Source of the DNA: Bacilli bacterium
GTDB taxonomy: Bacteria > Bacillota_I > Bacilli_A > RFN20 > CAG-826
Reading direction: 5' to 3'
NCBI GenBank assembly: GCA_017477255.1
Contig: JAFUXB010000002.1
Span: 182,474-246,473, forward strand
Length of the DNA: 64,000 nt
Shown: piece by piece, positions 2,579 through 26,168 of the stretch
Numbering within the stretch: position 1 is the first letter of the stretch
Layout of the letters: the number at the start of each line of letters is the position of its first letter
The notes under the pieces: generated by a model
Told to the model about the DNA's origin: nothing
The model's database searches: none
Seen by the model: only the letters and a program-made list of their open reading frames with translations
Translations under genes and position numbers: made by a program

Positions 2579-3340
2579 TTAATTTAAACCTAATTTAGTT
2601 AAGAATTCTTCTTCAGTAAAATCAGTACCAAAATCTTCACTAAACCACTGAATTATTTCTTTATAATTATGCTCACCTAAACCATCATTTAATAATGAAT
2701 AATATTCTTCTATAACACATTTATTATTTTTAAAAGGTATAAGTGAAATAGCATGCTCACTTGGATATGTAAAATTTAAATGATCATATTTATAGTCTCT
2801 GGTCCATTTTATTATTTCACTTATATTTTGATAGCTAAAAGTATAAATAGAATCAACATCTTCAAAAAAGGCATTAATTCTATTTTCTTGTTCTTTAATT
2901 TTATTTAATACTATTTCTCTTTTTTCTTTAGTTAAATCAACTAAAGAAAAACTTAATGGTCCATAGCCTTTATAAAGTTTAATTTGTGCTCTATTATATT
3001 CTTTTTTAATAAAATCACTATAATTATCACCAACTAAATCTTTTGTTTCTAAATCATATATTGTACCAGCATCACTAAAATTAAAAATGAGGAATGCATC
3101 AGTTTCTTTAAATAAATAATGACAATTACAATATTCATGTAATTTATATTCTAATAAAATATTTTTAATATTATTAAGTTTTATTAAGGTTTTATTGCGT
3201 TGATATTCACCTTTGTAATATATTCGTGGTCCTGCTTCTTCATATACATAACAAGTAGGATCTCTATCACAATTAAGCCCACAAGAAAAACATAACGAAG
3301 TTAAACAAAGAAAAGTAAATGTAATTAAAGATTTTTTCAT
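2579..3340 (-). CDS. lipoprotein, paralog A of a duplicated pair (Cys-motif EYCNCHYLF), unknown function
   Basis: 253 aa. N-terminus MKKSLITFTFLCLTSLCFSCG. The C-terminal 18 aa (DFGTDFTEEEFLTKLGLN) are identical to the 3671..4444 product. Flanking DNA is also duplicated. Confidence 0.85.
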   Translation of the reverse strand: MKKSLITFTFLCLTSLCFSCGLNCDRDPTCYVYEEAGPRIYYKGEYQRNKTLIKLNNIKNILLEYKLHEYCNCHYLFKETDAFLIFNFSDAGTIYDLETKDLVGDNYSDFIKKEYNRAQIKLYKGYGPLSFSLVDLTKEKREIVLNKIKEQENRINAFFEDVDSIYTFSYQNISEIIKWTRDYKYDHLNFTYPSEHAISLIPFKNNKCVIEEYYSLLNDGLGEHNYKEIIQWFSEDFGTDFTEEEFLTKLGLN

Positions 3341-3512: not shown

Positions 3513-3640
3513 AATAGGATTTAGAAGACTTTAAAAGAAATAAACAATAATGTTTTGTTTATTCAGATACAGACAAAATTGAAACAAATTATAATTATCA
3601 AAATCTATTAAAACACCTTGCTTTTGCAGGGTTTTTGTTT
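3513..3640 (+). pseudogene. decayed remnant of a second copy of the 1933..2499 lipoprotein gene plus its terminator
   Basis: 3521-3598 aligns to 2266-2333 (ttagaagactttaaaagaaat.aacaat..t.ttttgtttattcag.tacagacaaaattgaaacaaat). 3599-3665 then aligns to 2506-2575 including the CCTGCttttGCAGG hairpin. About 170 bp of coding sequence is missing between the two blocks. Confidence 0.6.
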
Positions 3641-4505
3641 TAAATAATGGGTTTTTACTTAAAACTAATATTAATTTAAACCTAATTTAGTTAAGAATTC
3701 TTCTTCAGTAAAATCAGTACCAAAGTCTTCATAAAAATAATTAAATGTATGACCATCATCATGATCATATATAGCATCTTTCAATAATGAATAATACTCA
3801 TCAATTACACATTTATTATTTCTAAAAGGAATTAATTGGGCAACATCAAATGTACTTACATGCAATATAAGATTATTATCATCGGGATTCTTATAATATT
3901 TTTTAGTGTTAATTAAATAATTGATATCAGAATGTTGTAATGAATAAACAAAATCTAAACTATTAAAAAATTCATTTATTTTACTCTCATGTTCTTTAAT
4001 TTCATTTAATACTCTTTCTTTTTCCTTTTTAGATAGGCCAACTAAAGAATAATTAAGAGTTTTACCGAACAGATAAGGGTCAGAATCTAATTTAATACCT
4101 TCAAATGATGAATTTAAATCATTATATGTATCGTCATTTATTAAACCTCTTGCTTCAATATCATATATTTTCTTTGTATTTTCAAAAACATAAAACAAGC
4201 TTACTGTTGTTGTTTTATATAATATCTCACAATTACAATATTCTTTATATTTATATTCTAAGCTTGCACTTTTAAAAGACGTTAATTTAAAAGCAGTTTT
4301 ACATTCTAGATATTCATTTTTGTCATAACGATCAGGATCGGCTATATCCACAAGAACACATGGTTGAAATCCACAAAGTTTTCCACATGAAAAAGATAAA
4401 GGCAATAAGTTAACAATTAATAATGGAATTAAGCTCTTTTTCATAATTTCTCTTCTTTCATTATATAAGACAATTTAAAAATGGAAAAGTGCTCAAAAAA
4501 ATGAA
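3598..4505. repeat. about 0.9-kb tandem segmental duplication (copy 2; copy 1 is 2506..3412)
   Basis: The 5' and 3' flanks are near-identical. 2521-2640 matches 3611-3730 and 3341-3412 matches 4445-4510. The coding regions are divergent paralogs. Confidence 0.7.
3671..4444 (-). CDS. lipoprotein, paralog B of duplicated pair (Cys-motif EYCNCEILY)
   Basis: 257 aa. N-terminus MKKSLIPLLIVNLLPLSFSCG. Shares its C-terminus and several internal blocks (LIPF(K/R)NNKCVI(E/D)EYYSLL) with 2579..3340. Confidence 0.85.
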   Translation of the reverse strand: MKKSLIPLLIVNLLPLSFSCGKLCGFQPCVLVDIADPDRYDKNEYLECKTAFKLTSFKSASLEYKYKEYCNCEILYKTTTVSLFYVFENTKKIYDIEARGLINDDTYNDLNSSFEGIKLDSDPYLFGKTLNYSLVGLSKKEKERVLNEIKEHESKINEFFNSLDFVYSLQHSDINYLINTKKYYKNPDDNNLILHVSTFDVAQLIPFRNNKCVIDEYYSLLKDAIYDHDDGHTFNYFYEDFGTDFTEEEFLTKLGLN

Positions 4506-4511
4506 AATAGA

Positions 4512-5168
4512 TTAATTATTGCGCTTTTTACGCAATGAATTAATCATTATGATATAAAAAGTTAATGAAAATACAAATAAAGCAATAAATACATATAAAT
4601 AGATCCAATTAATTTCTACATAAGGTGTTTTAAGGCCATAATAAATATATAAGTTACCATGCAGTTTATAAACATAAGTAATTTGATTTTTAGCATCAAC
4701 ACACTGAACATCACTATAACCAGTGCCATATAATTTTTCAGCTAGTTTACTGGCTAATTCATGCAATCTACTTGCTTCAAATATACCACCAAGACCTATA
4801 TCATTATGTGCTCCTTCATATGAATAAGCTTCATGCATAAATATTTGATTCTTTATTAAAGTAATTAAAAATAAAATTAAAAATATAAATGATCCAATCC
4901 AAAATAAAGATGCAATTATAGATAATATAATACTAGGAACATCATGTTTTACTTTTTCTTTAATTTTATTTTTAGGTGAAGAAACTAAATCTTCTAAAGA
5001 ACAATTCAAAATATCACATAGTTGTTCTAATGTTTCTAAATTAGGTTCACTTACACCACTTTCCCATTTAGAAATAGATTGTCTACTTATATTTAATCTA
5101 GTAGCAATATCATCTTGAGTTAAATTGTTTTTAATTCTTAAATCTTTCAAGTTTTCTTTAAAATTCAT
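4512..5168 (-). CDS. XRE-family HTH transcriptional regulator with a C-terminal transmembrane region
   Basis: N-terminus LKDLRIKNNLTQDDIATRLNISRQSISKWESG is a classic Cro/C1-type HTH. Two hydrophobic helices follow (SIILSIIASLFWIGSFIFLILFLITLI and LYVFIALFVFSLTFYIIMI). Confidence 0.8.
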   Translation of the reverse strand: MNFKENLKDLRIKNNLTQDDIATRLNISRQSISKWESGVSEPNLETLEQLCDILNCSLEDLVSSPKNKIKEKVKHDVPSIILSIIASLFWIGSFIFLILFLITLIKNQIFMHEAYSYEGAHNDIGLGGIFEASRLHELASKLAEKLYGTGYSDVQCVDAKNQITYVYKLHGNLYIYYGLKTPYVEINWIYLYVFIALFVFSLTFYIIMINSLRKKRNN

Positions 5169-5182
5169 ACTTATATTTTAAA

Positions 5183-5273
5183 AGTATACATAATAAAAAT
5201 CACGAACTTTAGTTGTTAACTAAAAGTTGCGTGATTGAAATTTTAAGAAAATAATGGGGATTTAGAAGGTTTT
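5183..5273 (-). repeat. 91-bp direct repeat copy A with embedded terminator hairpin (5199-5235)
   Basis: agtatacataataaaaATCACGAACTTTAGTTgttaacTAAAAGTTGCGTGATtgaaattttaagaaaataatgggga... Matches 7653-7744 with about 4 mismatches. On the minus strand the imperfect palindrome is followed by TTTTATTATG. Lies 3' of the RloB-like gene. Confidence 0.75.
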
Positions 5274-5299
5274 ATAATAAAAAACACTAACATAATCAT

Positions 5300-5920
5300 C
5301 TATTTAAATTTTTTTAGTATCTCGTTTATCCAACTACTGTCAGAGGACTCAAATTTATTCAAAAACATTAAAAAATTTGTGCTAGGTATATCTTTTATGT
5401 TACTAGAAATTTTCGATAAATTATTTTTAAATAAATCAAGAGAGTTATAATTTATTTTGTTTATTAACTGGTCGATTTGTTCATTTTTTGCAGAATAGTT
5501 TTTAATACCAGTTAATTGTTCTACTATTTTAGCGTTTGTTTTTTTGCCTACATTTTTCAATTTAACTTCACCAAAATGAGATAAAATAATTTGTAGTGTA
5601 ACCGGATTAGAATAGATAAACACTTCTAAAGAATCTTTTTTATTTTTAAAAAAATATTCACCAAATGAATTCAAAAAACTTAAAAATTGAGAACTATTAT
5701 TATCTCCATCACAAAAAACTAAAATCAAATCATAATATCCTTTTTGGAACTCATATTGATACCTAGCAAAAATTTTTCCATTTCCCTTTACATTTATAGC
5801 TTCAGCAAAATTATAGACTTCTTTATTTATGTTTGGAAAAGACAAAATTTTATCAATATAGGGTTTTTCTTCGTTTCCCTCAGCTAAAATTAGTATATTT
5901 CTCCTCCTTGTTTCACTCAT
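5300..5920 (-). CDS. RloB-like (Toprim-like, DUF4276/RloB family) protein, partner of the upstream AAA ATPase
   Basis: 206 aa. N-terminus RRRNILILAEGNEEKPYIDKI resembles the RloB consensus ILIVCEGEKTE. Overlaps the ATPase gene by 8 nt, indicating an operon. Confidence 0.55.
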   Translation of the reverse strand: MSETRRRNILILAEGNEEKPYIDKILSFPNINKEVYNFAEAINVKGNGKIFARYQYEFQKGYYDLILVFCDGDNNSSQFLSFLNSFGEYFFKNKKDSLEVFIYSNPVTLQIILSHFGEVKLKNVGKKTNAKIVEQLTGIKNYSAKNEQIDQLINKINYNSLDLFKNNLSKISSNIKDIPSTNFLMFLNKFESSDSSWINEILKKFK

Positions 5921-7163
5921 TATTTATTTCCTCAAGAGACGAAAATAAGTCAGGGGATGGAATTGCTCCAAATTGTCCCTTTAAATAATATTCAGAAATA
6001 TCTTCATCTCCTCTAATTCCGTTATTACTTCTTGAAGTAAAACTAGACATTCTTTTTACAATACTAGTGTTTTTATTTGTTAAATCAATTAAATAAATCT
6101 GATCTTTTCTAAATAATTGTTTAAAATTCAAGAGTAAGACATCATGCGTTGTAAAAACTAATTGCGCTTTTGTGTTTAATAAATTATTAAACATTGAAGC
6201 GATAGATCTAGTAATTATATGATGTAACGAACTTTCGATTTCATCTATAAATAATGTTTTTCCATTATAAAGAGCATCATAAATATACCCAGATAATGCA
6301 ATTAATTTCATAGTTCCTACCGATTCAAAGAAAATAGAAGGAACTCTATAACCATTATGTTTACTGGAAAATTTCAAAAATTCTTTAGAGAATGATGGTG
6401 AAGAAATAACTCTATTAATTTTATCAGATAAATCTTTGTCACTTACAATACTATCGTTAAAGCCAAATTCTTCTATATGTAAATCACAATTTTTTACGAA
6501 TGCTTGTATAAATTTTCTTGCTTTTTCATCATTTTGCATAAAGTTTATAGTTTTTGTAATATCAATTGGGTGATTCATCTCTATAAATAATAACGAATTT
6601 GCAAAATCTATATAGTCTTTTTTAATTTTTTTAATAAATTCATTATTTAAATCATTTAAAATTATTAAAACAGGGAACGATCTAGAAAAAGAATCGTAAT
6701 TTTTAATTTTAAATTCTTTATCATAAATAATATTGTTTTCTTTTCGTTTAAATATCGCTTTGTTTAAAGATTTATTATCTTCGTCTGTATTTAAAATTAA
6801 TTCTTCAGATTCATAAAGTTTTGTTTTATTATTATATGCAACTTTATAAGTGTAGAATCTTTTATTAATATAGTATTCAATTTCAAAAGTTGTTATTGGA
6901 TTATTTTCACTAAAAGCATAAGAAAAATCTTCGTGTGGTTCAGCGAGCATTAATGCTCTTAGCCCTTTAAAAGCTCTAAATAAACAAGTTTTACCAGTAT
7001 TGTTTGGTCCATATACTCCTATTACTTTTAAAATATTTTTTTTCTTAGTTTTAATATAATTAAAATTAAATCTTTTAATATTTCCATTAGCTTGGAAATC
7101 AATTTCAATCTTATTTAAAAACGTTTCAAAATTTTCTACTACTAATCTGCAAATCATAATCAA
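5913..7163 (-). CDS. AAA_21/OLD-type P-loop ATPase (abortive-infection/PARIS/OLD-like ATPase component)
   Basis: 416 aa. N-terminus RLVVENFETFLNKIEIDF plus Walker A VIGVYGPNNTGKTC. C-terminal Walker B and signature block TLFIDEIESSLHHIITRSIASMF, followed by FTTHDVLLL (the D-loop/H-loop of SMC/ABC-like AAA_21). Confidence 0.7.
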   Translation of the reverse strand: MIMICRLVVENFETFLNKIEIDFQANGNIKRFNFNYIKTKKKNILKVIGVYGPNNTGKTCLFRAFKGLRALMLAEPHEDFSYAFSENNPITTFEIEYYINKRFYTYKVAYNNKTKLYESEELILNTDEDNKSLNKAIFKRKENNIIYDKEFKIKNYDSFSRSFPVLIILNDLNNEFIKKIKKDYIDFANSLLFIEMNHPIDITKTINFMQNDEKARKFIQAFVKNCDLHIEEFGFNDSIVSDKDLSDKINRVISSPSFSKEFLKFSSKHNGYRVPSIFFESVGTMKLIALSGYIYDALYNGKTLFIDEIESSLHHIITRSIASMFNNLLNTKAQLVFTTHDVLLLNFKQLFRKDQIYLIDLTNKNTSIVKRMSSFTSRSNNGIRGDEDISEYYLKGQFGAIPSPDLFSSLEEINNE

Positions 7164-7652
7164 AACTCCATAAAATATATTAAAATTATATCATATTTTA
7201 AAAACTGTGCAAATTATTTACACAGATTAACAAAATATAAGAAATTTATATTCAATAAAAAGTTTGCAAAAATTTTGTAATCTGAAAGCAATAATTGATT
7301 TGTAATGAGAATTTTCAAAATTTATAAAAGTAAATAAAAATAGAAATATCTAATTAAAATCATTCAAACAAATATAGGTTCAGGCAAATTAAATAGGGAG
7401 TCTTTTAAATGGACTCCCTGTTTTATTTAACAGTTCTTTTAGTTTAGATCAACTTTTAAAGTAATGAATTCACTCTAACTATAATTACATTTATTTTTAA
7501 AGAATAATTAGGTTTAATCGATAATTTAATTAAACTTGATTAAAAATAAAAACAGACATTTTTGTGTCTGCTTTTAAGTCCCGTTTAATTTAACAGTTTT
7601 GGTGGGTTGTTTGATTTATACCCCGCTATTCCCCGTTTAATTTAACAGATCC

Positions 7653-7744
7653 AGTATACATAATAAAAATCACGAACTTTAGTTGTTAACTAAAAGTTGC
7701 GTGATTAAAATTTTAAGAAAATAATGGGGTTTTGAGGGGTTTTT
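7653..7744 (-). repeat. 91-bp direct repeat copy B with embedded terminator hairpin (7669-7705)
   Basis: Near-identical to 5183-5273. Lies immediately 3' of the giant protein gene, whose stop is at 7763. Confidence 0.75.
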
Positions 7745-7762
7745 AGCTTCAAATTCATTATT

Positions 7763-10700
7763 TTAAGCTACTTCATAGTTATCATTAATAAATTGTTTAA
7801 TAACTTCAATAAGATAATCTAATGTAAAATATCCTTTTCCAATTGGAACTGCTAAATATTCTCCACCCCACCATAAATATTGATCATAAGTAACTAAGTC
7901 TTTGACTAAATTGTAATCTAATGGTCCATATTTTTCTAAATCTTGTTCCATTTTGATAGGGTCATATTTAAATTCTGGAGTAACTTCAAACCAAACATGT
8001 TCATGTAATGTTGGTTCAACAGTTAAAATATTATTTGCTAAATATTGATAATCATACATTGTGTCAATTTCATAATATTCAGTATCTTTATTTTCAACAT
8101 ATGCATCAACAACTCGTTTATATCCTATTGTTGATGTGCCAATATCTGAAAGCAATTTTTTACCTATAAATGAACTATAATTACTAGAATCAATTGTTAC
8201 ATAATCTAATAGTTCTGCATCAAAGAATGATTGTTTCCAAATAGCTTCAACTTTTGATCCATCATCAAATACTACAGTTATAACGTCAGCATTTTGCATA
8301 GTGCCGCTCTCATACCAAATAATTGGCCTATTAACAAATGCACCCTCTTTAAAGCTCCAAGTTTTAACAAGTTCTCCTAACTTAACGTCCTTAATTGCTT
8401 TATAAGAACCGTCTGCCATCGTTACTAAAGTATTTCCAGTAACGCATACACCAGAATTATGCATTATATTAAAATCACAACTATATTCCGTATTATTAAT
8501 GTCTGTTACTTTACATCTCAATACACAAGCATCAGGTTTCTGATTAGTGCGTCCATCAAAATGAATTTTTGTACTTCGTGAACCATCATCATCAATAGTT
8601 GTTTTATTTGCAACCTTTGTTCCAGAATAATCAACCATATATTCTCTTTCTCCTGTTGGACTATAAAAAGTCCATTGAACTTGTGAAATTTGACCATTTG
8701 ATGGCTCCCATTTTAAACTATAAGTAATTGTTGTGTCTGTACTTGTAACTTCTTCGTGATAAGACCAATTTTGTGCAACTGTAATTCCGCTGACTCCATC
8801 ATGTTCACTTGATGTTCCGACAACTGTTTTTGAAGATTTGTTAGTACTACTAGTAATCCAAACCGATGTAACACCGACTAAGCTATCATCTGGAATTACT
8901 TCAGTATTATATGTACCAAAAACTTCACTATGATATGAAGATGTTGCAGTAATAACAACTTGCCCTAAATTAACACCAGTAACTTTGCCTGTTTCATCTA
9001 CAGTTGCAATTGATGTATTGCTTGAAGACCAAATTACGTCCTTATTATAAGCTTTTTCAACATCAATCAAGTTAGCTTTTAATTGAATACTATGATTTAT
9101 ATATAAAGGATCTTTACCATTATCTAATTTCCCAGTAGTACTCTCTACAGTTATAGATTGTACATCAAATTCATTAATACCATTATTGTTAGATGATATA
9201 CTAGGCAAACTATTTATTACACAAAATACTACATTACTAGCATTATTAATGTATGATCTATAAGCATACCTACTAGATGTGCCAAAAACATTGTTGTTAC
9301 CTTTAAAGACATTAACATTATAAATGTTATTTAATAATTCTAATTGAGCATTAGTCACAGAATCGACATGGAGAACTTTTTGAACTCCATTTATTTGCCA
9401 TTGTTCTCCATTGTTAATTACATTTAACTTTGGTTTATTTGGGTTTGGAAAATCGTTTGAATTAAAAAATGTATTCATTCCTATAAGGATTTTCTTTGAA
9501 TTAATCTTTTCTAATGACGATATCGAAAGTTGCTCTCTTATTATTAAGTAATCTTTAATAACAAAAGGCGCGCTTCTTACATCTTGATTCCATGGTTCAT
9601 TGCTCTCTACGATATCTGACGACGAATAAATAATGTTTGCTGAATCGTTGCAATATACATTTCCACCAATTTTTTGCATGGTAATCTTTCCACCATCCTC
9701 AACGATACAATTTGCATTATTTTTAACAGGATAATGAGCTCCACAACTCCATTTTGATGTTGGTCTCTCTCCACTGCTGTTATCAATGAATGTGCTATAT
9801 ACCGTCAATTCTGATCCGTTTAAATCCACGTTATTAGAAACAGCCAAAGATGCTTCAGGTAACAATTTTATTTTTTGATTTAATGTAGAAAATGTTGCTC
9901 TACCACTTTGGTTTGAATTTCTAAGCAAACTAATATTCATTTTATATGAAACAGGGAAAAAACCATTTGCTGTACTTAAAGTCTTTTCAACACCACTAAT
10001 TTTAATCTTAAAGCTAAATGTATTAAGAGAAAAACCACCATAAAATTTTAAATTCATTATTTTTTTATCTTTGTCATATTTTGCTTCCAAATATGAATAA
10101 GTAGAATTGGTAAGTTTAACTAAAGCTGCATTCCCGTTGGATATTATCAAAGAATCATTATTTGCAATAACTTCATCAATTGTTCCAATAATAGGAATTC
10201 CAGTTTGATACACGTATACATTAGAGCACCCATATAATTTAGCATTATATCTAAAGTATGAAGTGCAAAAAATATTTCTAAACTCAATTTGATTAAATGG
10301 TGGAACGCCATATGTATTATTTGCTTCTTCCATACCACTTGCAACAGAAAAACCTCTATAATCGCAAACTACTAAAGGCATATATACTGTTCCATTTGCA
10401 AAATCTATATAACTATTATTATTTTTTACATCTTCTTCTATATAACCATAACAATGTGTTATTGCAGTACTTGAATTTTGGATTATTGCTGCTCCATGTT
10501 TTAATAAAAAACGAGAATACGAAAAACCAGTATAACTAATTAATGAGGAGTTTTGGTTTGTTCCAGAATAAAGATAACCACTGATTACAAGAGTACCATT
10601 ATTAATTAATGTTTTTCCACTCTCTATTTCTACTGTAGTTCTTAAATAATTCGTTGAATGATTAATAGCATCTTTATCGGTACTTCCGAGGTTTCTGCTA

Positions 10701-11140
10701 TCTTTCCACATTGATTTAATGTAAGTTTCAAGTGTTTCCTGATTATTAACACTGTCAATATTATTTTTATCTGTTGGCAAAATTAAAGTAACGCCTTGTT
10801 TAATTTCACAATTATCTTTTATTTTATATGTAACGGAATCTACAGAAATTTTATTATTTACTGAATGATAATTTTGTTTTTTTGGTGGTATTGTAACAAC
10901 AATATCACCACTATTAGCACTTTTTAAAGCTCCTTCAATAGTTGGAAAATATATTTTGTTAGATCCAGCAATATAAGCTACAGGCTCCTGAACGCTGCTT
11001 GTATATGTTTCATTAGTACTATTAGCTGTATCATTTTGATTATCTCCAGCATTCCAACTAGCATAAGAAACTTTAGGCATTAATCCTAAAGAAATAAATG
11101 CAAACATAAAAAATGCTAAAAGTTTTTTAAACCACTTCAT
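7763..11140 (-). CDS. giant secreted multidomain protein 1 (ASW-type SipW-cognate-like signal peptide; Big_2; C-terminal Hint/BIL autoprocessing domain)
   Basis: 1125 aa. N-terminus MKWFKKLLAFFMFAFISLGLMPKVSYASWNAGDN. Big_2 block IQLKANLIDVEKAYNKDVIWSSSNTSIATVDETGKVTGVNLGQVVITATS. Hint block A CVTGNTLVTMADGSYKAIKDVKLGELV. The conserved C-terminal tail is shared with 20554..24099. Start overlaps the stop of 11140..11757 (TAATG). RBS AAGGAG. Confidence 0.85.
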   Translation of the reverse strand: MKWFKKLLAFFMFAFISLGLMPKVSYASWNAGDNQNDTANSTNETYTSSVQEPVAYIAGSNKIYFPTIEGALKSANSGDIVVTIPPKKQNYHSVNNKISVDSVTYKIKDNCEIKQGVTLILPTDKNNIDSVNNQETLETYIKSMWKDSRNLGSTDKDAINHSTNYLRTTVEIESGKTLINNGTLVISGYLYSGTNQNSSLISYTGFSYSRFLLKHGAAIIQNSSTAITHCYGYIEEDVKNNNSYIDFANGTVYMPLVVCDYRGFSVASGMEEANNTYGVPPFNQIEFRNIFCTSYFRYNAKLYGCSNVYVYQTGIPIIGTIDEVIANNDSLIISNGNAALVKLTNSTYSYLEAKYDKDKKIMNLKFYGGFSLNTFSFKIKISGVEKTLSTANGFFPVSYKMNISLLRNSNQSGRATFSTLNQKIKLLPEASLAVSNNVDLNGSELTVYSTFIDNSSGERPTSKWSCGAHYPVKNNANCIVEDGGKITMQKIGGNVYCNDSANIIYSSSDIVESNEPWNQDVRSAPFVIKDYLIIREQLSISSLEKINSKKILIGMNTFFNSNDFPNPNKPKLNVINNGEQWQINGVQKVLHVDSVTNAQLELLNNIYNVNVFKGNNNVFGTSSRYAYRSYINNASNVVFCVINSLPSISSNNNGINEFDVQSITVESTTGKLDNGKDPLYINHSIQLKANLIDVEKAYNKDVIWSSSNTSIATVDETGKVTGVNLGQVVITATSSYHSEVFGTYNTEVIPDDSLVGVTSVWITSSTNKSSKTVVGTSSEHDGVSGITVAQNWSYHEEVTSTDTTITYSLKWEPSNGQISQVQWTFYSPTGEREYMVDYSGTKVANKTTIDDDGSRSTKIHFDGRTNQKPDACVLRCKVTDINNTEYSCDFNIMHNSGVCVTGNTLVTMADGSYKAIKDVKLGELVKTWSFKEGAFVNRPIIWYESGTMQNADVITVVFDDGSKVEAIWKQSFFDAELLDYVTIDSSNYSSFIGKKLLSDIGTSTIGYKRVVDAYVENKDTEYYEIDTMYDYQYLANNILTVEPTLHEHVWFEVTPEFKYDPIKMEQDLEKYGPLDYNLVKDLVTYDQYLWWGGEYLAVPIGKGYFTLDYLIEVIKQFINDNYEVA

Positions 11141-11757
11141 TATGCATTCTCCTTAGGGGTAAATGTAATATTAAAATTAGCAGAGGCTAAATTAGGAAAA
11201 CTTGATAAAGATCCAGTCCATTTTAAATTTAGACTAAAATCAAAGCTAAAATCAGCATCCGTATTTGTACATGTAATAACAAATGATGTTGTAATTGCTT
11301 CTCCATCTACTGGATCAGTATCATTAACGCTAAAATTTGTACTAGTTAATGACATTGAGCTGGATGAAAAACCATTAGGATTTAATCCATTTGGTAAAGC
11401 AGTTGATAAACTAACATCTAATTTGAAAGATTTTGTGTTTCTATAGCTTGTAAAGCATGATTTTGCATTCGCTGTATTAACTAAGCATGTGCCAGTTAAA
11501 TCAACGTTATCAGCGTAAATTCCATCATTAACAAAGCCATATCCAGTTGCATATTCAAAATTTCCTAATGAAGAAATTGTAATTACATCAAGAGCTTCGC
11601 CAGTTCCTCCTGTAATTACATCTCCAACACTTAAATCAACAGTCATATTATTAGTTGCCTGTGTAGCTACTGCCCACGTTGAAAAACCAAGTCCTACTAA
11701 GCTAATAATAGAAACTGGACATAAAACAACAAGTAACTTTCTTCCTATCTTTTTCAT
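11140..11757 (-). CDS. TasA/camelysin-like secreted protein 1 with SipW-cognate-type signal peptide
   Basis: 205 aa. N-terminus MKKIGRKLLVVLCPVSIISLVGLGFSTWAVATQ aligns to the B. subtilis TasA signal region (LALVGGGTWAAFND). The mature part starts TVDLSVG, compare TasA SGTLDLS. Translationally coupled to the giant gene. Confidence 0.6.
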   Translation of the reverse strand: MKKIGRKLLVVLCPVSIISLVGLGFSTWAVATQATNNMTVDLSVGDVITGGTGEALDVITISSLGNFEYATGYGFVNDGIYADNVDLTGTCLVNTANAKSCFTSYRNTKSFKLDVSLSTALPNGLNPNGFSSSSMSLTSTNFSVNDTDPVDGEAITTSFVITCTNTDADFSFDFSLNLKWTGSLSSFPNLASANFNITFTPKENA

Positions 11758-20553: not shown

Positions 20554-23500
20554 TTATCTTGCTTGACCGGTTTTAAATAAATTAGCAACGTATTTCATTA
20601 CATTAATAATATGTTCTTTAGTAGTAATTCCTTTTTGAACTACTATATTGCAATATTTACCATTAATCTTTTCAAAGAAGTCTAAAGACATATAATCTTT
20701 CCATTCTTCATATGAATAAAGACCATATTTATTAATATCTTCTTCCATTAATTTTTCATCATATTTATATGAATTATCCATTTCAAAATAGTTACATGTT
20801 ATATCAACACATGTTTCAGTAATTGATAACACGTTATCAGTAACGCAGTTAACGTTATAATCAGTTAATATTGAATATGCATGACAATATTCTTCACTTA
20901 CTTCAATGTCTACAATTTTCTTAATTCTAATAGATCCATTATTTTCACAAACTACTTCTCTATTTATGAAACTGTTATAGCTATTTCTATTGATAGATTC
21001 GTATTTTTTAGTGTCATTCATTAATACACCATGAGCATTAATTATTTCAAAATTAGAACCATCATCAAATATAACATTAATCTTTGTATTATAGTCATTA
21101 CCATGATCAATTAATGCTAATATATTACTGTATTCAAACTTACCTTCGAAATGATTAAATGTTAAAACTTTATCTTCTTTAATTAAATCTTTAGCTTTCT
21201 TTAAACCATTTAATGTATTAATTAATGTGTCTTCTGAGAAACAACCTCCACTGTTTTTTGATGCATTTGCCACAGTAATGGTAGCATTTCCTGTACCAGA
21301 TACTGTATATGGGCTTGCATTGCCAGTCAAATTCGTGACTGCGATATTTCCTGCTGTATAGTCACTTTCTGCACTTACTTTAATTGTTATTACATCATTA
21401 ACATTAATCGACTGACTAACATTTTCTGTGCTTGATGCTGCAATCGTTGTATCATTAACGATTATAGTATTACCACGCTTAATACTATATGTAGCTGTTT
21501 CGTTACTACCAACATTAATTGTTAAATTATAAGAGATTGGCGTTTGTTCTCCAACAACAGTAATCGACTGGCCCCGAGAAGTTGATAAACAAACACCTGT
21601 TTGACCAGTTTTTAAAGTATGTCCATCTAAAGCTCCGCCAGTTACTTGCCATACCATTTCATAACCAGTAGGTAATGTAATTCCATAATTTGCTGCATCT
21701 GGAACAGTAAAGATTGCATCTTTATTTAAATATCTAATAGTTTGTACTAAATTATTGCCTGCAATCCCGATTGTTATTTCGTTTTTGTTAAGCCAATTTG
21801 CATACAGCTCACAAGAACCTGTAATTTGTGAATTGCTAGTATATTTATTATTAAACGAAGAATCTAAATACCAACCATCAAAATATTTTCCATATGATGT
21901 ATTGCTATTTTTGCCACTTAAATCAGGAACAACTAATTTATCAACATTAACACTTAGAATATCTTCTGAAGAGATGCAAGTGCATCCTTCATCTGTATTA
22001 TCATTTACATAAGTTATCGTGAAGGTCTCAGTATCAGCAGGATACCATCTGCCATATAAATTCAAATTATATGGTGAAGATAAATATGCAAAAATATTAG
22101 AATTTATCTGAGTAATTTTTGTTTGATATAATGAATCAATATACCAACCATCAAAAATTAATGAATTATGTTTTGCAGGATATAAATTTAAATTTGATTC
22201 AACATTAAACTGTGTAGGATTTCTTGAATCATTGCTTTGTCCACTTATTTGATTACCTTCAAAATCGACGTTAAAATTATACGAAATTGAGTAATTGATT
22301 GGTGACCATTTTGCATATAAAACTACACTACTATAAACTACATTAGAAAGCGCACTAATTGTACAATTTTCATCTAAAAACCATCCATCAAAATTGTAAT
22401 GTTCTCGTACAGGAGTATTCGCAATGTCATCGTTATTTATTGTGTATCCTCCATTTCCTATTGTTATAGTTTTTGGGCTAAAAGTCGTCGATGAACCATT
22501 GCAATCATACGATATAGTTCCAGCATTAGAAAACCGTCCATAATTGCTCTCTGTATCTACATATGAAAAATATGTGCCTGGTCCAACATTCTCAAAAACA
22601 TCACTGATTAATCCATTTTTTAACAATTTTAATTTTAATGATCCGTTTATAGTTGTATATGTTACACTTGTAAAAATAGTGCTGCCACTGTGGTTTAAAT
22701 GTTCATAAGATGTTATAGAAGTATTTGTAGCTGTTGTTTGAGCCCCTTCATTTGTTGAAATTACCAAGCCTGCTAATTTTTGAGCTGACAAAACTCCATT
22801 ATTAATCAAAATAGGTTCACTAGCTGTGTTAGGATACGCAGTGTGTGAATCAGTACTTAGATCTTTATAATTTTCATAACTTATTAAATCATCTACATTT
22901 AAAGTCGCAGTTTCGTCAATAAACACTCTACAACCTTTCATTAATTTTAATTTGTTTGAACATGTTATTGTTCCATTAAAAAAATATAGATGGAATGAAT
23001 AAGAAAGTGAAAATCTAAACGATGATGTATCTAAAGAAGTTCCTGCGACATTTAAAGTCAAAGCGTTAATTTTACAGTTTCCTCTTACCCTTATATCCAT
23101 AAAATTTAAATATCTATTACTATAATTTGAAGAATTATTATTTGCATAATTATATTTAAAATCAATAATTGCACCACTAGACATTTGAAATAGATGTGAA
23201 GATGAATTTCCTATAATTTTTATATCCTTTGCACTATGTGAATCACTACTAGCATAAAGCCAGGTATCAACAGTCAACGATGCACCATATTGAATATTAA
23301 CTAGAGGCCTCACATTACAAATCTCATACTCATTAAAAAATATTACATTTTTAGATGACTTATCACTGTTTAATCCATATGTAACTGAACCGCCTCGAAA
23401 ATCGTGAATGATAAAAGGAGCATTTAAAATAGAACCGGATTCAAGTATAATTTTTGGCCAAGTAGTTCTATCTGCCACTTCATCATAATCACCCTGATGT

Positions 23501-24099
23501 TTTGCATATTCTGTAATGTAGCCATAAACAGTTAATTTCGATCCGTTCTTGCAAAGTACTTGGGAATTATCTTTTAATGTTAATTGTGCATAATTACCAT
23601 TAGTAGCACCCCCATACAATCCTGCTCCAGCACCTGCTCCAATAGAACCACCTACAATCATTGTCCCATAATTAGTTATTTTGACCCCATCATCAAGTGT
23701 AACTTTTAATTTCATATAGGTGGCATCATCTTGTTCTTTAAAAACGTTACTAGATGTAGGAGAATTTATATATGTTTCATTTTCATAAGGCAAAATTAAA
23801 CTAACACCACTATTAATAGTAAAACTATTTTTAACAATTGGATTACTTCCAGGAATGACATAAACCGTTTTATTTCCAACATTGTTTGCTGAATTTATAG
23901 CGGCTTCTAGAGATGAAAAATAAGTAGAATCATAATAAGCAACCGGATTTGATTCTTGTGCGCTTACCTTATTACTACTTACTTCATTAATTTTTCTTAT
24001 TTCATCTGAAACCCATGAAGCGCTACCAGTTTTAATTGTAGAAAAAATACACCCAAAAAAAATTAAAAAACCAATAAATATGTTCTTAAATTTTTTCAT
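20554..24099 (-). CDS. giant secreted multidomain protein 2 (paralog of 7763..11140; Gly-rich/beta-helix region, three Flg_new repeats, C-terminal Hint/BIL domain)
   Basis: 1181 aa. N-terminus MKKFKNIFIGFLIFFGCIFSTIKTGSASWVSDE. The N-terminal block PVAYYDSTYFSSLEAAINSANNVG is homologous to giant 1. Flg_new repeats YNFDGWFLDENC...LYAKW, LIFDGWYIDS...LYGRWY and KYFDGWYLDSS...LYANW. Hint block A GGCFSEDTLINTLNGLKKAKDLIKEDKVLTF. ATGA overlap with 24096..24761. Confidence 0.85.
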   Translation of the reverse strand: MKKFKNIFIGFLIFFGCIFSTIKTGSASWVSDEIRKINEVSSNKVSAQESNPVAYYDSTYFSSLEAAINSANNVGNKTVYVIPGSNPIVKNSFTINSGVSLILPYENETYINSPTSSNVFKEQDDATYMKLKVTLDDGVKITNYGTMIVGGSIGAGAGAGLYGGATNGNYAQLTLKDNSQVLCKNGSKLTVYGYITEYAKHQGDYDEVADRTTWPKIILESGSILNAPFIIHDFRGGSVTYGLNSDKSSKNVIFFNEYEICNVRPLVNIQYGASLTVDTWLYASSDSHSAKDIKIIGNSSSHLFQMSSGAIIDFKYNYANNNSSNYSNRYLNFMDIRVRGNCKINALTLNVAGTSLDTSSFRFSLSYSFHLYFFNGTITCSNKLKLMKGCRVFIDETATLNVDDLISYENYKDLSTDSHTAYPNTASEPILINNGVLSAQKLAGLVISTNEGAQTTATNTSITSYEHLNHSGSTIFTSVTYTTINGSLKLKLLKNGLISDVFENVGPGTYFSYVDTESNYGRFSNAGTISYDCNGSSTTFSPKTITIGNGGYTINNDDIANTPVREHYNFDGWFLDENCTISALSNVVYSSVVLYAKWSPINYSISYNFNVDFEGNQISGQSNDSRNPTQFNVESNLNLYPAKHNSLIFDGWYIDSLYQTKITQINSNIFAYLSSPYNLNLYGRWYPADTETFTITYVNDNTDEGCTCISSEDILSVNVDKLVVPDLSGKNSNTSYGKYFDGWYLDSSFNNKYTSNSQITGSCELYANWLNKNEITIGIAGNNLVQTIRYLNKDAIFTVPDAANYGITLPTGYEMVWQVTGGALDGHTLKTGQTGVCLSTSRGQSITVVGEQTPISYNLTINVGSNETATYSIKRGNTIIVNDTTIAASSTENVSQSINVNDVITIKVSAESDYTAGNIAVTNLTGNASPYTVSGTGNATITVANASKNSGGCFSEDTLINTLNGLKKAKDLIKEDKVLTFNHFEGKFEYSNILALIDHGNDYNTKINVIFDDGSNFEIINAHGVLMNDTKKYESINRNSYNSFINREVVCENNGSIRIKKIVDIEVSEEYCHAYSILTDYNVNCVTDNVLSITETCVDITCNYFEMDNSYKYDEKLMEEDINKYGLYSYEEWKDYMSLDFFEKINGKYCNIVVQKGITTKEHIINVMKYVANLFKTGQAR

Positions 24100-24761
24100 A
24101 TAACAGATTCCGCTCCTAAAGTTACTTTAAATCCGACTCCGTTTGAAACATATTTATATGTATTATAAAATGTCGAAAAATTTACAGGTGAAAGAGCAGC
24201 TAAAATAGAAAAATTAACATTTTCATCAGTCAAATCAGAAACACTTGTGTTATATGAAATTATTATTTCAGATCCATTTTCAACAGTTATACCATCATTT
24301 ATTTGTGTCAAATTATGTAATGCGCTGATATTCGTTTTGTTTGCATTAACAGTAACAATATTATTTAGATTCAAAGTATTATTGCCATCAAATCCATTGA
24401 TTTTCAAAATAATCCTCATTTCATTTGATAATAATAAAGATTTGATTCCTCTTTTGGCTAAATTTAAATTAATTGATGAATTTACGGTTATATACCCACC
24501 ATAAGGGTCAATTATCGAACCTTCTTGAGAATACGTTCCATCACTCATTTCAAAGCCATATTGAGACATCTTAAAAGTTTGTAATGTTACTGATCCAAAT
24601 GCATCAATATTATCTGCAGTTTCGACATTACCAACTGATAAGTTTACTGAAATATTAGTACTTACTTGCTTAGCAACAGCCCATGTTGAAAAACCTAACC
24701 CGATTAAGCTAACCATTGAAACGGGAAGCAAAATAGCCAATAACTTCTTATTTATCTTCAT
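24096..24761 (-). CDS. TasA/camelysin-like secreted protein 2 with SipW-cognate-type signal peptide
   Basis: 221 aa. N-terminus MKINKKLLAILLPVSMVSLIGLGFSTWAVAKQVSTNISVNLSVGNV is a paralog of 11140..11757. RBS GGTAAGAG. Confidence 0.6.
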   Translation of the reverse strand: MKINKKLLAILLPVSMVSLIGLGFSTWAVAKQVSTNISVNLSVGNVETADNIDAFGSVTLQTFKMSQYGFEMSDGTYSQEGSIIDPYGGYITVNSSINLNLAKRGIKSLLLSNEMRIILKINGFDGNNTLNLNNIVTVNANKTNISALHNLTQINDGITVENGSEIIISYNTSVSDLTDENVNFSILAALSPVNFSTFYNTYKYVSNGVGFKVTLGAESVI

Positions 24762-24890
24762 TTACTCTTACCTAGTTTTAAGTAAGAGAATATTATAAAC
24801 TCATTTACTATACGAAAATGTATAATAAAAAACTCTCTAAACTCAAAACTCTACATATATATTAATATATATGTAATAATTAAGCAAACA

Positions 24891-24916
24891 AAAAAGTTAG
24901 CTATAGGAGCTAACTT
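24891..24916 (-). terminator. rho-independent terminator of 24958..26055
   Basis: aaaaAAGTTAGCtataggaGCTAACTT: 8-bp stem with an A-run on the plus strand. Same palindrome family as 26084-26111. Confidence 0.65.
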
Positions 24917-24957
24917 TCTACTAAAATATCAAATTTGCACACCTTCTTATTAAAAAT

Positions 24958-26055
24958 TTACCTTTTAACATAATTTGGACACACTGTTGAAATTGCTTCG
25001 CTTAAAGGACAACTATATCGTTTATAACATGTAAGGCATTGTTCTCTAGCTTTTTGTGTTTCTATTTGTCTTCTTAATTCTGCAGTAAGTTTATTATCAT
25101 CATCAATCATAATAGCAATGGCTTCTTTTAATGTATCTGCTCTTGCTGCTTCTAATATTTCAATAAGTTTTTCTACTTCATCAATATAAACTTGAGGATA
25201 ATAAATTGGTAATGAAGCTACATAATTGTTTAATTCTTCATTTAATACTTTTTGCTTTTCAAGTTTTTCATGAATCTCTTTTTCTCTAGCTAATTCATAC
25301 ATTTTATGAGCTTTTTTAACACATTTATCATATTCTTTTTCAATTTGCTCATAAATTATTATCTTTTCTTCATAATCTGCTAGATCTTTATTATATTTGT
25401 CCAAATCTTTTTCATATTGTATTAAATCTTGCTCATATTGAATTCTTCTTTTTTCAACTCTTTCTTTTTCTATTTTTGTTTTTTCTTCTATTTCTTTAAT
25501 AATTTCAGATCTTCTTTTTTCTTTTGCTATAGCTCTTTTAATTGCTTTAAATAATATTATTGAAAGTAAGGTACCTAAACCTAAAGCTAGCACTACTATT
25601 CCAACAATAAGTGTTGTTTGTCCTCTTTGCATGGATCCTTCATGATATGTTTCACCATATTCTGCAATTTCTTTTTTAGAGTTATTAACAACAATACCAC
25701 CAATAATAAGAATTAAAATTCCTAAAATAGCTAAAAATATTGTTATTCCATTAAAAACTTTATATGGCATATATTTATCAGAAAAACTCGCATGTTCTGA
25801 ACCATCATAAGCTTTTTCCCGACATTTTAACTCTTCTTCTACTGTAGGAACATTAATTGAATCACTAAAATATGGTTTATTAGGCTCTTTTGGTTTTTTT
25901 GGTTTTATATTATTTATATGTTTTTCTTCAATTTCTTTATCTATAAAATCTTCTTCTTTTGCAGTTTTTTTATCTAATATTTCATTTATTTTCTTATTCT
26001 TTTCATTTTTAGCTTTTTTAATTAAATAAAGCTCGCTTAATAATTCTTTATCCAT
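24958..26055 (-). CDS. coiled-coil membrane protein with Cys-rich C-terminus, unknown function
   Basis: 365 aa. Two TM helices (ITIFLAILGILILIIGGIVV and TLIVGIVVLALGLGTLLSIILF). A long KE-rich heptad region follows. The C-terminus is CLTCYKRYSCPLSEAISTVCPNY. Confidence 0.75.
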   Translation of the reverse strand: MDKELLSELYLIKKAKNEKNKKINEILDKKTAKEEDFIDKEIEEKHINNIKPKKPKEPNKPYFSDSINVPTVEEELKCREKAYDGSEHASFSDKYMPYKVFNGITIFLAILGILILIIGGIVVNNSKKEIAEYGETYHEGSMQRGQTTLIVGIVVLALGLGTLLSIILFKAIKRAIAKEKRRSEIIKEIEEKTKIEKERVEKRRIQYEQDLIQYEKDLDKYNKDLADYEEKIIIYEQIEKEYDKCVKKAHKMYELAREKEIHEKLEKQKVLNEELNNYVASLPIYYPQVYIDEVEKLIEILEAARADTLKEAIAIMIDDDNKLTAELRRQIETQKAREQCLTCYKRYSCPLSEAISTVCPNYVKR

Positions 26056-26083
26056 TATTATTTCCTCTTTACATATATTTTAA

Positions 26084-26111
26084 CAAAAAAGTTAGCTTTA
26101 GGGGCTAACTT
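26084..26111 (-). terminator. rho-independent terminator of 26169..26852
   Basis: aaaaaAGTTAGCtttagggGCTAACTTtc. Confidence 0.6.
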
Positions 26112-26168
26112 TCTTAAAAACAAGAATTAAAATCCTAATACACTTTTTATAAATTTTAGCTAAATATT

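Follow-up and report, generated by a model that had tools for sequence, protein, structure and literature searches.

AbiL and PARIS have been grouped among the systems that combine an ABC ATPase with a TOPRIM protein, a grouping that leaves the mechanism of AbiL open (PMC11464382, PMC13064643), and lactococcal AbiL gives phage resistance according to Deng 1999, as cited in the second source (PMC13064643). Here we describe a gene pair of this kind in a 64,000-nucleotide (nt) stretch of contig JAFUXB010000002.1 from a Bacilli bacterium (assembly GCA_017477255.1); this stretch is referred to as the window and its coordinates are used unless another locus is named. An initial annotation had proposed a defence-type pairing of an ABC ATPase with a Toprim protein, bracketed by two copies of a 91-nt terminator-bearing direct repeat. 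Both parts of that proposal hold, and the PADLOC run that it had called for on the two proteins (AbiLi 8.9e-61, AbiLii 2.8e-6) identifies the pair as AbiL/RloAB-like specifically. Taken as one whole, the locus is best explained as a two-gene AbiL/RloAB-type anti-phage operon bracketed by this repeat, here called R, a reading to which we assign a probability of roughly 0.75. The features on which it is built are these:

5913..7157, minus strand: abiLi-like gene for a Rad50/SMC-type ABC ATPase (AAA_21) of 414 amino acids (aa); the longest open reading frame (ORF) begins at TTG 7163
5300..5920, minus strand: abiLii-like gene for a 206-aa protein of a divergent RloB/OLD-type Toprim subfamily (E14, D71xD73, NPVTLQIILSHF), with an 8-nt overlap with abiLi
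7653..7743, no strand assigned: R copy 2, starting 19 nt past the stop of a 1125-aa surface-protein gene (7763)
7669..7705, minus strand: palindrome of R copy 2, a hairpin followed by a U-run, overlapped by a sigma-70-like TTAACA-18-TATTAT
5183..5273, no strand assigned: R copy 1, starting 26 nt past the abiLii stop and ending 14 nt before the ATG of an XRE gene
5199..5235, minus strand: palindrome of R copy 1, a hairpin; the same promoter-like match would here serve the XRE gene

The unit measures 2.47 kb and lies between the surface-protein gene and the XRE regulator gene. Its two minus-strand ORFs (5913-7163 and 5300-5920) share the 8-nt overlap ATGAGTGA at 5913-5920, which is also present in close homologues and through which the genes are translationally coupled. 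The cassette itself (5274-7652) contains no ORF besides these two, and its DNA has no match in plasmid and phage collections. The ATPase matches Pfam AAA_21 at 7.4e-25 and PADLOC AbiLi at 8.9e-61 and carries the Walker A motif GPNNTGKT and the Walker B motif LFIDEIE. Both motifs and an H-loop-like TTHD are invariant or nearly so in an alignment of 25 homologues, and G52-K58 and D307/E308 are invariant in the homologue alignment. The structure model of the ATPase (pLDDT, the predicted local distance difference test score, 84) has Foldseek matches (E 1e-12 to 1e-10) to Rad50/SMC heads and to Septu/retron PtuA, and sequence searches against solved structures returned nothing for either the ATPase or the partner family. 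The annotation had begun the protein at TTG 7163 (416 aa), for which an exact look-up found no record. The true start is most likely ATG 7157 (414 aa), because homologues begin at MIC..., the gene call on an identical ENA scaffold is 414 aa long and a GGAG sequence lies 8 nt upstream.

The partner is the more divergent protein. On its own it matches PADLOC AbiLii weakly (2.8e-6) and has no Pfam RloB or DUF4276 match even at E<=10, and none of the partner homologues listed carries a precomputed Pfam domain. Among 30 members of its family, 27 match PADLOC AbiLii, four match RloB (all sub-threshold, the best at 2.2e-4) and two weakly match OLD-like_TOPRIM. The family is large, with 202 clusters in one search and, in an exhaustive search, 398 representatives (50% identity) at E<=1e-3 and 251 at E<=1e-10. 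A link to RloB emerges at the level of profiles: hhalign aligns the partner family with bona fide RloB partners over 163 columns (94.6%, E 6.5e-8), pairing AEGxEE with CEGxKTE, FCDxD with VFDRD, NPVTLQIVLSHF with NPCFELWLLLHF and PSTN with NPST (partner family and RloB, respectively). The link required the RloB alignment, the family scoring a probability of only 0.9% against one single RloB sequence. Intermediates connect the two groups. The protein encoded directly after farther ATPase homologues (25-30% identical) passes RloB at 1e-29 to 1e-45, the partner at locus L065 scores 35.7 bits with RloB (PF13707, gathering threshold 31.5 bits) and 1.8e-16 with the hidden Markov model (HMM) of the partner family, and other intermediates pass or almost pass both models. 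E14, D71 and D73 are invariant in the partner-family alignment and N105-P106...H115 is conserved. The partner thus falls short of strict Pfam RloB membership and has RloB homology at profile level, together with the conserved Toprim Glu, DxD and NPxxE/LxxHF motifs and the alpha/beta core plus helical domain of an OLD-type Toprim fold. Of the earlier label RloB/DUF4276, the RloB link stands, shown indirectly, and the Pfam RloB and DUF4276 matches do not; the reading of NILILAEGNEEKPY as a Toprim signature is supported by the profile alignment. As a side observation, strain L019, ~97% identical, has a TTG-to-TAG nonsense change in abiLii near its position 2138 (~5360 in the window). The protein is shortened by its last 20 residues, among them the nearly invariant Trp197, and the nuclease may be decaying in that strain.

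The architecture of ATPase plus partner is found again in dozens of loci with unrelated neighbours, among them a Hachiman/GmrSD/patatin island, capsule loci and a viral contig, and the catalytic motifs of both proteins in the window are intact. We file the locus as an AbiL/RloAB-type defence operon because of this recurrent two-gene architecture and the published placement of AbiL. The ATPase component is an AbiLi-type AAA_21/AAA_15 ABC ATPase in which both Walker motifs are intact, and the AbiLii component is adjacent in the same operon, though its match is weak (2.8e-6); membership in AbiL is judged here by matches to PADLOC models rather than by PADLOC system cut-offs. By analogy with AbiL, we infer that the present pair acts in phage defence. 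Two further names in the annotation fare less well, since a Septu-like assignment is contradicted by a partner that is not an HNH protein, and PARIS applies at the level of the superfamily and not beyond it, there being no DUF4435 AriB partner. Separately, a 60%-identical homologous cassette lies in a clear defence island (L010, 651-10981) alongside HamA and a DEAD/ResIII helicase (Hachiman-like), GmrSD and two patatin genes.

The two copies of R (5183-5273 and 7653-7743) are identical at 85 of 91 positions (93%; 94 nt, 93.6% and E 3e-33 by blastn), with six mismatches where four had been counted earlier and with the second copy ending at 7743 rather than 7744. All six mismatches fall within the 37 nt closest to the preceding gene, and the remaining 54 nt, which contain the palindrome, a T-run and the promoter-like TTAACA-18-TATTAT, are identical. 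The borders of R are sharp, and R runs past the hairpin at both ends, by 37 nt and by 17 nt. Exactly two copies of the imperfect 37-nt palindrome are present in the 64 kb (0 expected in shuffles); as minus-strand RNA they have fold energies of -13.6 and -13.8 kcal/mol (z -4.2 and -3.1) and are followed by UUUUUAUUAU. Fold energy and U-run fit an intrinsic terminator for both the 1125-aa gene and the operon, so that the hairpin of R copy 2 is likely the terminator of the former and that of R copy 1 likely the terminator of the latter; the annotation's minus-strand terminator is therefore plausible. The search for further copies of R that it had suggested found two only in the 64 kb, the pattern of R and palindrome has no match in genome and metagenome contig collections, R has none in plasmid and phage collections, and R was not found next to other AbiL cassettes.

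The region upstream of the ATPase gene contains a candidate operator and an extended leader:

7185..7213, minus strand: promoter-like site, TTTGCA-17-TGATATAAT, TATAAT with TG extension (extended -10), with a GGAG ribosome-binding site at 7166-7169
7205..7225, minus strand: dyad CTGTGTAAATAATTTGCACAG, which overlaps the operon promoter at its -35; putative operator
7264..7280, minus strand: second, weaker dyad-like site TACAAAATTTTTGCA, ~57 nt upstream of the main dyad
~7389-7413, no strand assigned: second leader hairpin
7417..7648, no strand assigned: 17-nt motif CCCGTTTAATTTAACAG in three copies, at 7417-7433, 7580-7596 and 7632-7648
7547..7576, no strand assigned: bidirectional terminator-like hairpin of 12 pairs in the leader

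The main dyad lies ~45 nt upstream of the ATPase start, and its core, TGCAAA-N4/5-TTGCA, lies close to the ATPase start, or a short way upstream of it, in 30 of 75 non-redundant loci (<=1 mismatch), with 32 promoter-proximal dyad sites observed against 1.8 expected. Dyad-bearing loci make up most of the subfamily, down to an ATPase identity of 31% (L003, L007, L010, L022, L023, L025, L031, L037, L043, L044, L048, L049, L053, L058, L065, L067, L102, L104, L111 and others). Across AbiL-like operons the dyad and the -35 of a TGnTATAAT promoter overlap, and the bases flanking the dyad core tend, by eye, to co-vary symmetrically (A..T or G..C). Its position and conservation suggest a putative operator for autoregulation of the operon; no DNA-binding domain was identified. 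We found no earlier description of this dyad, and its conservation at AbiL-like promoters is a new observation. The leader (7286-7652) has no ORF, no Rfam match and no similarity to other loci, and an Rfam scan of 4400-8000 yielded nothing credible. The hairpin at 7547-7576 would block read-through from R copy 2 into the operon. As a further observation, a transcript of ~100 nt ending at 7547 could start from the promoter-like site of R copy 2.

Bracketing by direct repeats is not confined to the window. We surveyed 54 non-redundant homologous loci for direct repeats of 35-150 nt whose copies lie 1.5-3.5 kb from each other, and by an automatic test six of 13 repeat pairs tightly bracket the cassette, against ~0.6 expected; L059, with a frameshifted cassette, is a seventh. 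Counted as independent loci, these are about five (the window, L053/L055/L056, L059, L065 and L108), and the repeats of L082 and L096 bracket their cassettes more loosely. The side-locus repeats are 39-126 nt long and, in the coordinates of their own contigs, lie as follows:

L053: 5865-5915 and 7924-7980
L059: 3329-3418 and 5532-5621, the copies differing in the terminator stem by apparently compensatory changes
L065: 5895-5976 and 7762-7843
L082: 852-890 and 2784-2821
L096: 5019-5143 and 8014-8136, attC-like, with AAC...GTT ends and a long imperfect palindrome
L108: 5905-5945 and 7961-8001

The bracketing repeats show no sequence relationship to one another; terminator hairpins occur in several of them, one is a multi-copy hairpin and another looks attC-like. 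That of L108 was found on its own viral contig only, and flanking repeats are absent around the four closest homologous cassettes. The recurrent bracketing of homologous cassettes by short direct repeats is a new observation. So is the bracketing of an unrelated gene by a second terminator repeat in the window itself (24887-24926 and 26082-26119, 40 nt, 90%, hairpin AAAGTTAGC...GCTAACTTTTTT), which encloses a lone 365-aa gene (24958-26055) that is not a paralogue of its upstream LRR_5-domain neighbour; no empty site for this gene was found in three other assemblies. This second pair suggests a general gain of genes beside terminators and, equally, suggests that similar terminator modules are common here.

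How the cassette came to lie between the R copies was examined by comparing strains. The window is 99.99% identical to ENA ERZ28654966 scaffold_23, and five further assemblies of the species, one of them a ~97%-identical strain, either carry the cassette or break at R. None of the six assemblies of the species has an empty site (look-ups with the XRE protein, the 1125-aa protein, AbiLii and an 89%-identical XRE variant), exact protein look-ups returning occupied or truncated contigs only. No syntenic sister species was found in the genome contig collection, where the XRE protein found only distant relatives, and no recombinase domain occurs among the genes within ~10 kb. The differences between the two R copies are identical in every strain, and the duplication is therefore older than the sampled diversity. 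The tetranucleotide distance of the cassette is 0.282, compared with 0.213 +/- 0.034, 2% of the windows compared being more distant, and composition mildly supports a foreign origin. Without the cassette, 19 nt, R and 14 nt would form a normal spacer between the surface-protein and XRE genes, and insertion of the cassette into this former spacer, leaving R on both sides, is plausible and the simplest reading. Since neither an empty site nor a recombinase nor R elsewhere was found, it is the geometry that points to insertion with duplication; homologous cassettes elsewhere lend this some indirect support, since they too are flanked by direct repeats, unrelated in sequence, at above-chance frequency.

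Several observations weigh against the reading of the locus as a repeat-bracketed AbiL/RloAB-type defence operon. The partner lies under the Pfam RloB threshold and its AbiLii match is weak (2.8e-6); AbiLii superposes poorly on AriB, according to a review (PMC13064643); and phage defence in the present subfamily is predicted from sequence, the mechanism being taken from PARIS and OLD. On the side of the repeats, the empty site and a recombinase within ~10 kb are missing, R is absent from other AbiL cassettes, the GC content of the cassette is within about one standard deviation of that of neighbouring genes, and the ~370-nt leader (7286-7652) is not accounted for.

Alternative explanations concern the function of the pair and the meaning of R. 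A housekeeping RecF/SMC-like ATPase next to an unrelated small ORF would fit the nearest folds, Rad50 and SMC heads; it is given almost no weight and is effectively refuted by the constant pairing of the ATPase with a Toprim partner in variable and patchy contexts and by the lack of a housekeeping equivalog (an NCBIfam scan matched neither protein), and the closest ATPase relatives outside the species are just 60% identical. It is very unlikely that the pair lacks a role in phage defence and is instead a toxin-antitoxin-like addiction module or a restriction-linked RloAB module. The promoter dyad does resemble a toxin-antitoxin operator, RloA/RloB were first described within Campylobacter hsd loci (PMC13064643), and the L019 nonsense change is of the sort seen in dispensable selfish modules. 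These points are set against the phage resistance conferred by lactococcal AbiL, as noted above, the presence of homologues in defence islands and the lack of restriction-modification genes nearby. Toxin-antitoxin behaviour and defence are moreover compatible, and PARIS displays both.

As for R, its copies may be uninformative on mobility, belonging to a local or genome-wide family of terminator modules or stemming from local duplication or gene conversion, in which case any operon of this genome might come to lie between them. We regard this as somewhat unlikely, while acknowledging the second near-identical terminator pair around an unrelated 365-aa gene in the same 64 kb, a 98-nt pair that accompanies a tandem lipoprotein duplication of which L019 has one of the two paralogues, the many-copy hairpin that brackets the cassette in L053/L055/L056, and the lack of an empty site and recombinase. 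Against it, R exceeds its hairpin by 37 nt and 17 nt with sharp borders, there are just two copies in 64 kb, the genes adjoining the two copies are not paralogues and direct-repeat pairs at homologous loci concentrate on the cassette. It is more doubtful that R is an attachment site and the unit a 2.47-kb recombinase-less cassette, resembling a cis-mobilizable element (CIME), whose excision as a circle and integration, by site-specific or homologous recombination at R, depend on an enzyme encoded elsewhere. Campbell-type integration fits the X-R-Y-R-Z geometry, a crossover is consistent with the 54 perfectly identical nt on the same side of both copies, homologous cassettes at other loci are bracketed by direct repeats of which one looks attC-like (L096), and assemblies from three other samples break at R, one contig being exactly one unit of 2476 nt. 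Breaks are expected at any repeat longer than the assembler k-mer and are hence uninformative; no empty-site or circle junction was seen, no integrase is nearby, R has no integron core sites, the direct repeats at other loci are unrelated in sequence and the cassette is fixed in all six assemblies. Two related candidates were rejected. For an insertion sequence or transposon, the cassette has only the ORFs of the two genes, no terminal inverted repeats are among the pairs listed and the flanking repeat is direct and 91 nt long. For attC, the palindrome arms do not, by eye, fit RYYYAAC/GTTRRRY, there is no recombinase domain within ~10 kb and the copies number two.

Returning to the repeat-bracketed defence operon, its assembly and action may be pictured as follows. 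R and its short flanks (19 + 91 + 14 nt) would have been the entire former spacer between the neighbouring genes, and entry of the cassette, in an event older than the sampled strains, would have left R at both sides, thereby giving the same terminator to the upstream gene and the new operon and keeping the promoter region of the XRE gene. By analogy with PARIS, the OLD family and the published AbiL phenotype, the ATPase would be sensor and restraint and the Toprim nuclease the effector: an ATPase oligomer would keep the nuclease inactive and sense a phage product, infection would free or activate the nuclease, and the freed nuclease would cut nucleic acid and abort infection. The dyad could provide autorepression of the operon in the style of toxin-antitoxin systems. 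A wider generalization, to which we give low odds, is that AbiL-type cassettes are mobile units of ~1.9-2.5 kb without a recombinase of their own, that they duplicate 40-90 bp of terminator-bearing spacer targets through an enzyme acting in trans or template switching at the hairpin, that they can be lost by recombination between the repeats and that their ATPase-nuclease complex shuts down its own promoter via a family-specific dyad operator. If true, these would be 'minimal defence islands' bounded by direct repeats and losable again by repeat recombination.

The surroundings of the cassette include further repeats and candidate defence genes:

4512..5168, minus strand: XRE-type helix-turn-helix protein with transmembrane segments (context)

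The XRE protein was considered as a component of the system and rejected, since it is not beside the homologous cassettes examined. Two tandem lipoprotein paralogues (2579-3340 and 3671-4444) share 69% nucleotide identity, and strain L019 has just one of them. Near them a 98-nt segment occurs at 2261-2358 and 3519-3616 (91% identical); one copy is contained in the plus-strand lipoprotein ORF 1933-2499, which makes the other a probable relic. The regions 7763-11757 and 20554-24761 are similar modules, each with a gene of ~205-221 aa overlapping the start of a gene for a surface protein of >1100 aa whose repeats are Ig-like (immunoglobulin-like) or Listeria-Bacteroides repeats and whose C-terminal domain is Hint-like. 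The two modules have a 95-nt stretch in common (11645-11739 and 24652-24746, 74% identity). The proteins could be polymorphic-toxin or self-cleaving surface proteins. At ~1-420 of the window (L014, 20721-21416), a NERD-domain gene is followed by a KTI12/AAA_33 kinase-like gene, and these two genes, at a distance of ~5 kb from the cassette, may also be of defence type.

With this analysis a rumen/gut Bacilli lineage of which little is known gains a defence locus, and an AbiLii/RloB partner subfamily missed by Pfam annotation is delineated. The promoter dyad is a testable lead on the silencing of ABC-ATPase/Toprim systems, and the repeats that recurrently bracket such cassettes offer a lead, though not yet evidence, as to the way in which very small recombinase-less defence cassettes move.

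Set beside known systems, the unit resembles integron cassettes and CIMEs in being a short gene unit bounded by direct copies of a palindrome-bearing element, and it differs from them in that R lacks RYYYAAC/GTTRRRY cores, no integrase is nearby, the cassette has its own promoter and R is known in two copies only. Septu (PtuA/PtuB) has in PtuA a protein similar in fold to the present ATPase, which gives weak PADLOC PtuA matches, whereas the Septu effector is an HNH nuclease and the present partner is Toprim-like with no HNH. In OLD nucleases (class 1 P2 Old; class 2/Gabija GajA) ATPase and Toprim are fused, unlike the two genes found here, and Gabija adds the UvrD-like GajB, no helicase being present near this pair. 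PARIS (AriA/AriB) shares the arrangement of an ABC ATPase with a separate Toprim effector and is the likely working model for the present system. The PADLOC AriA match (1.6e-24) is generic, however, the AriA model spanning the same 304 positions as AAA_21, and the present partner has no DUF4435/AriB match in Pfam or PADLOC. RloA/RloB (AAA_21 plus RloB PF13707; Campylobacter hsd loci and Clostridium estertheticum pCF005-D) agree with the present pair in gene order, sizes and Toprim motifs, but the present partner and most of its subfamily lie under the RloB gathering score and the locus has no link to restriction-modification genes. AbiL of the Lactococcus lactis plasmid pND861 likewise has a gene for an AAA_21/Rad50-like ABC ATPase with a small OLD-type Toprim gene after it in a two-gene operon, a comparison made through PADLOC models (AbiLi 8.9e-61; AbiLii weak, 2.8e-6) rather than the lactococcal sequences. 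The lactococcal system is plasmid-borne, whereas the present locus is chromosomal in a metagenome-assembled genome of an uncultured AT-rich Bacilli. The pair is thus of a known defence type, and the picture of OLD-like systems is unchanged.

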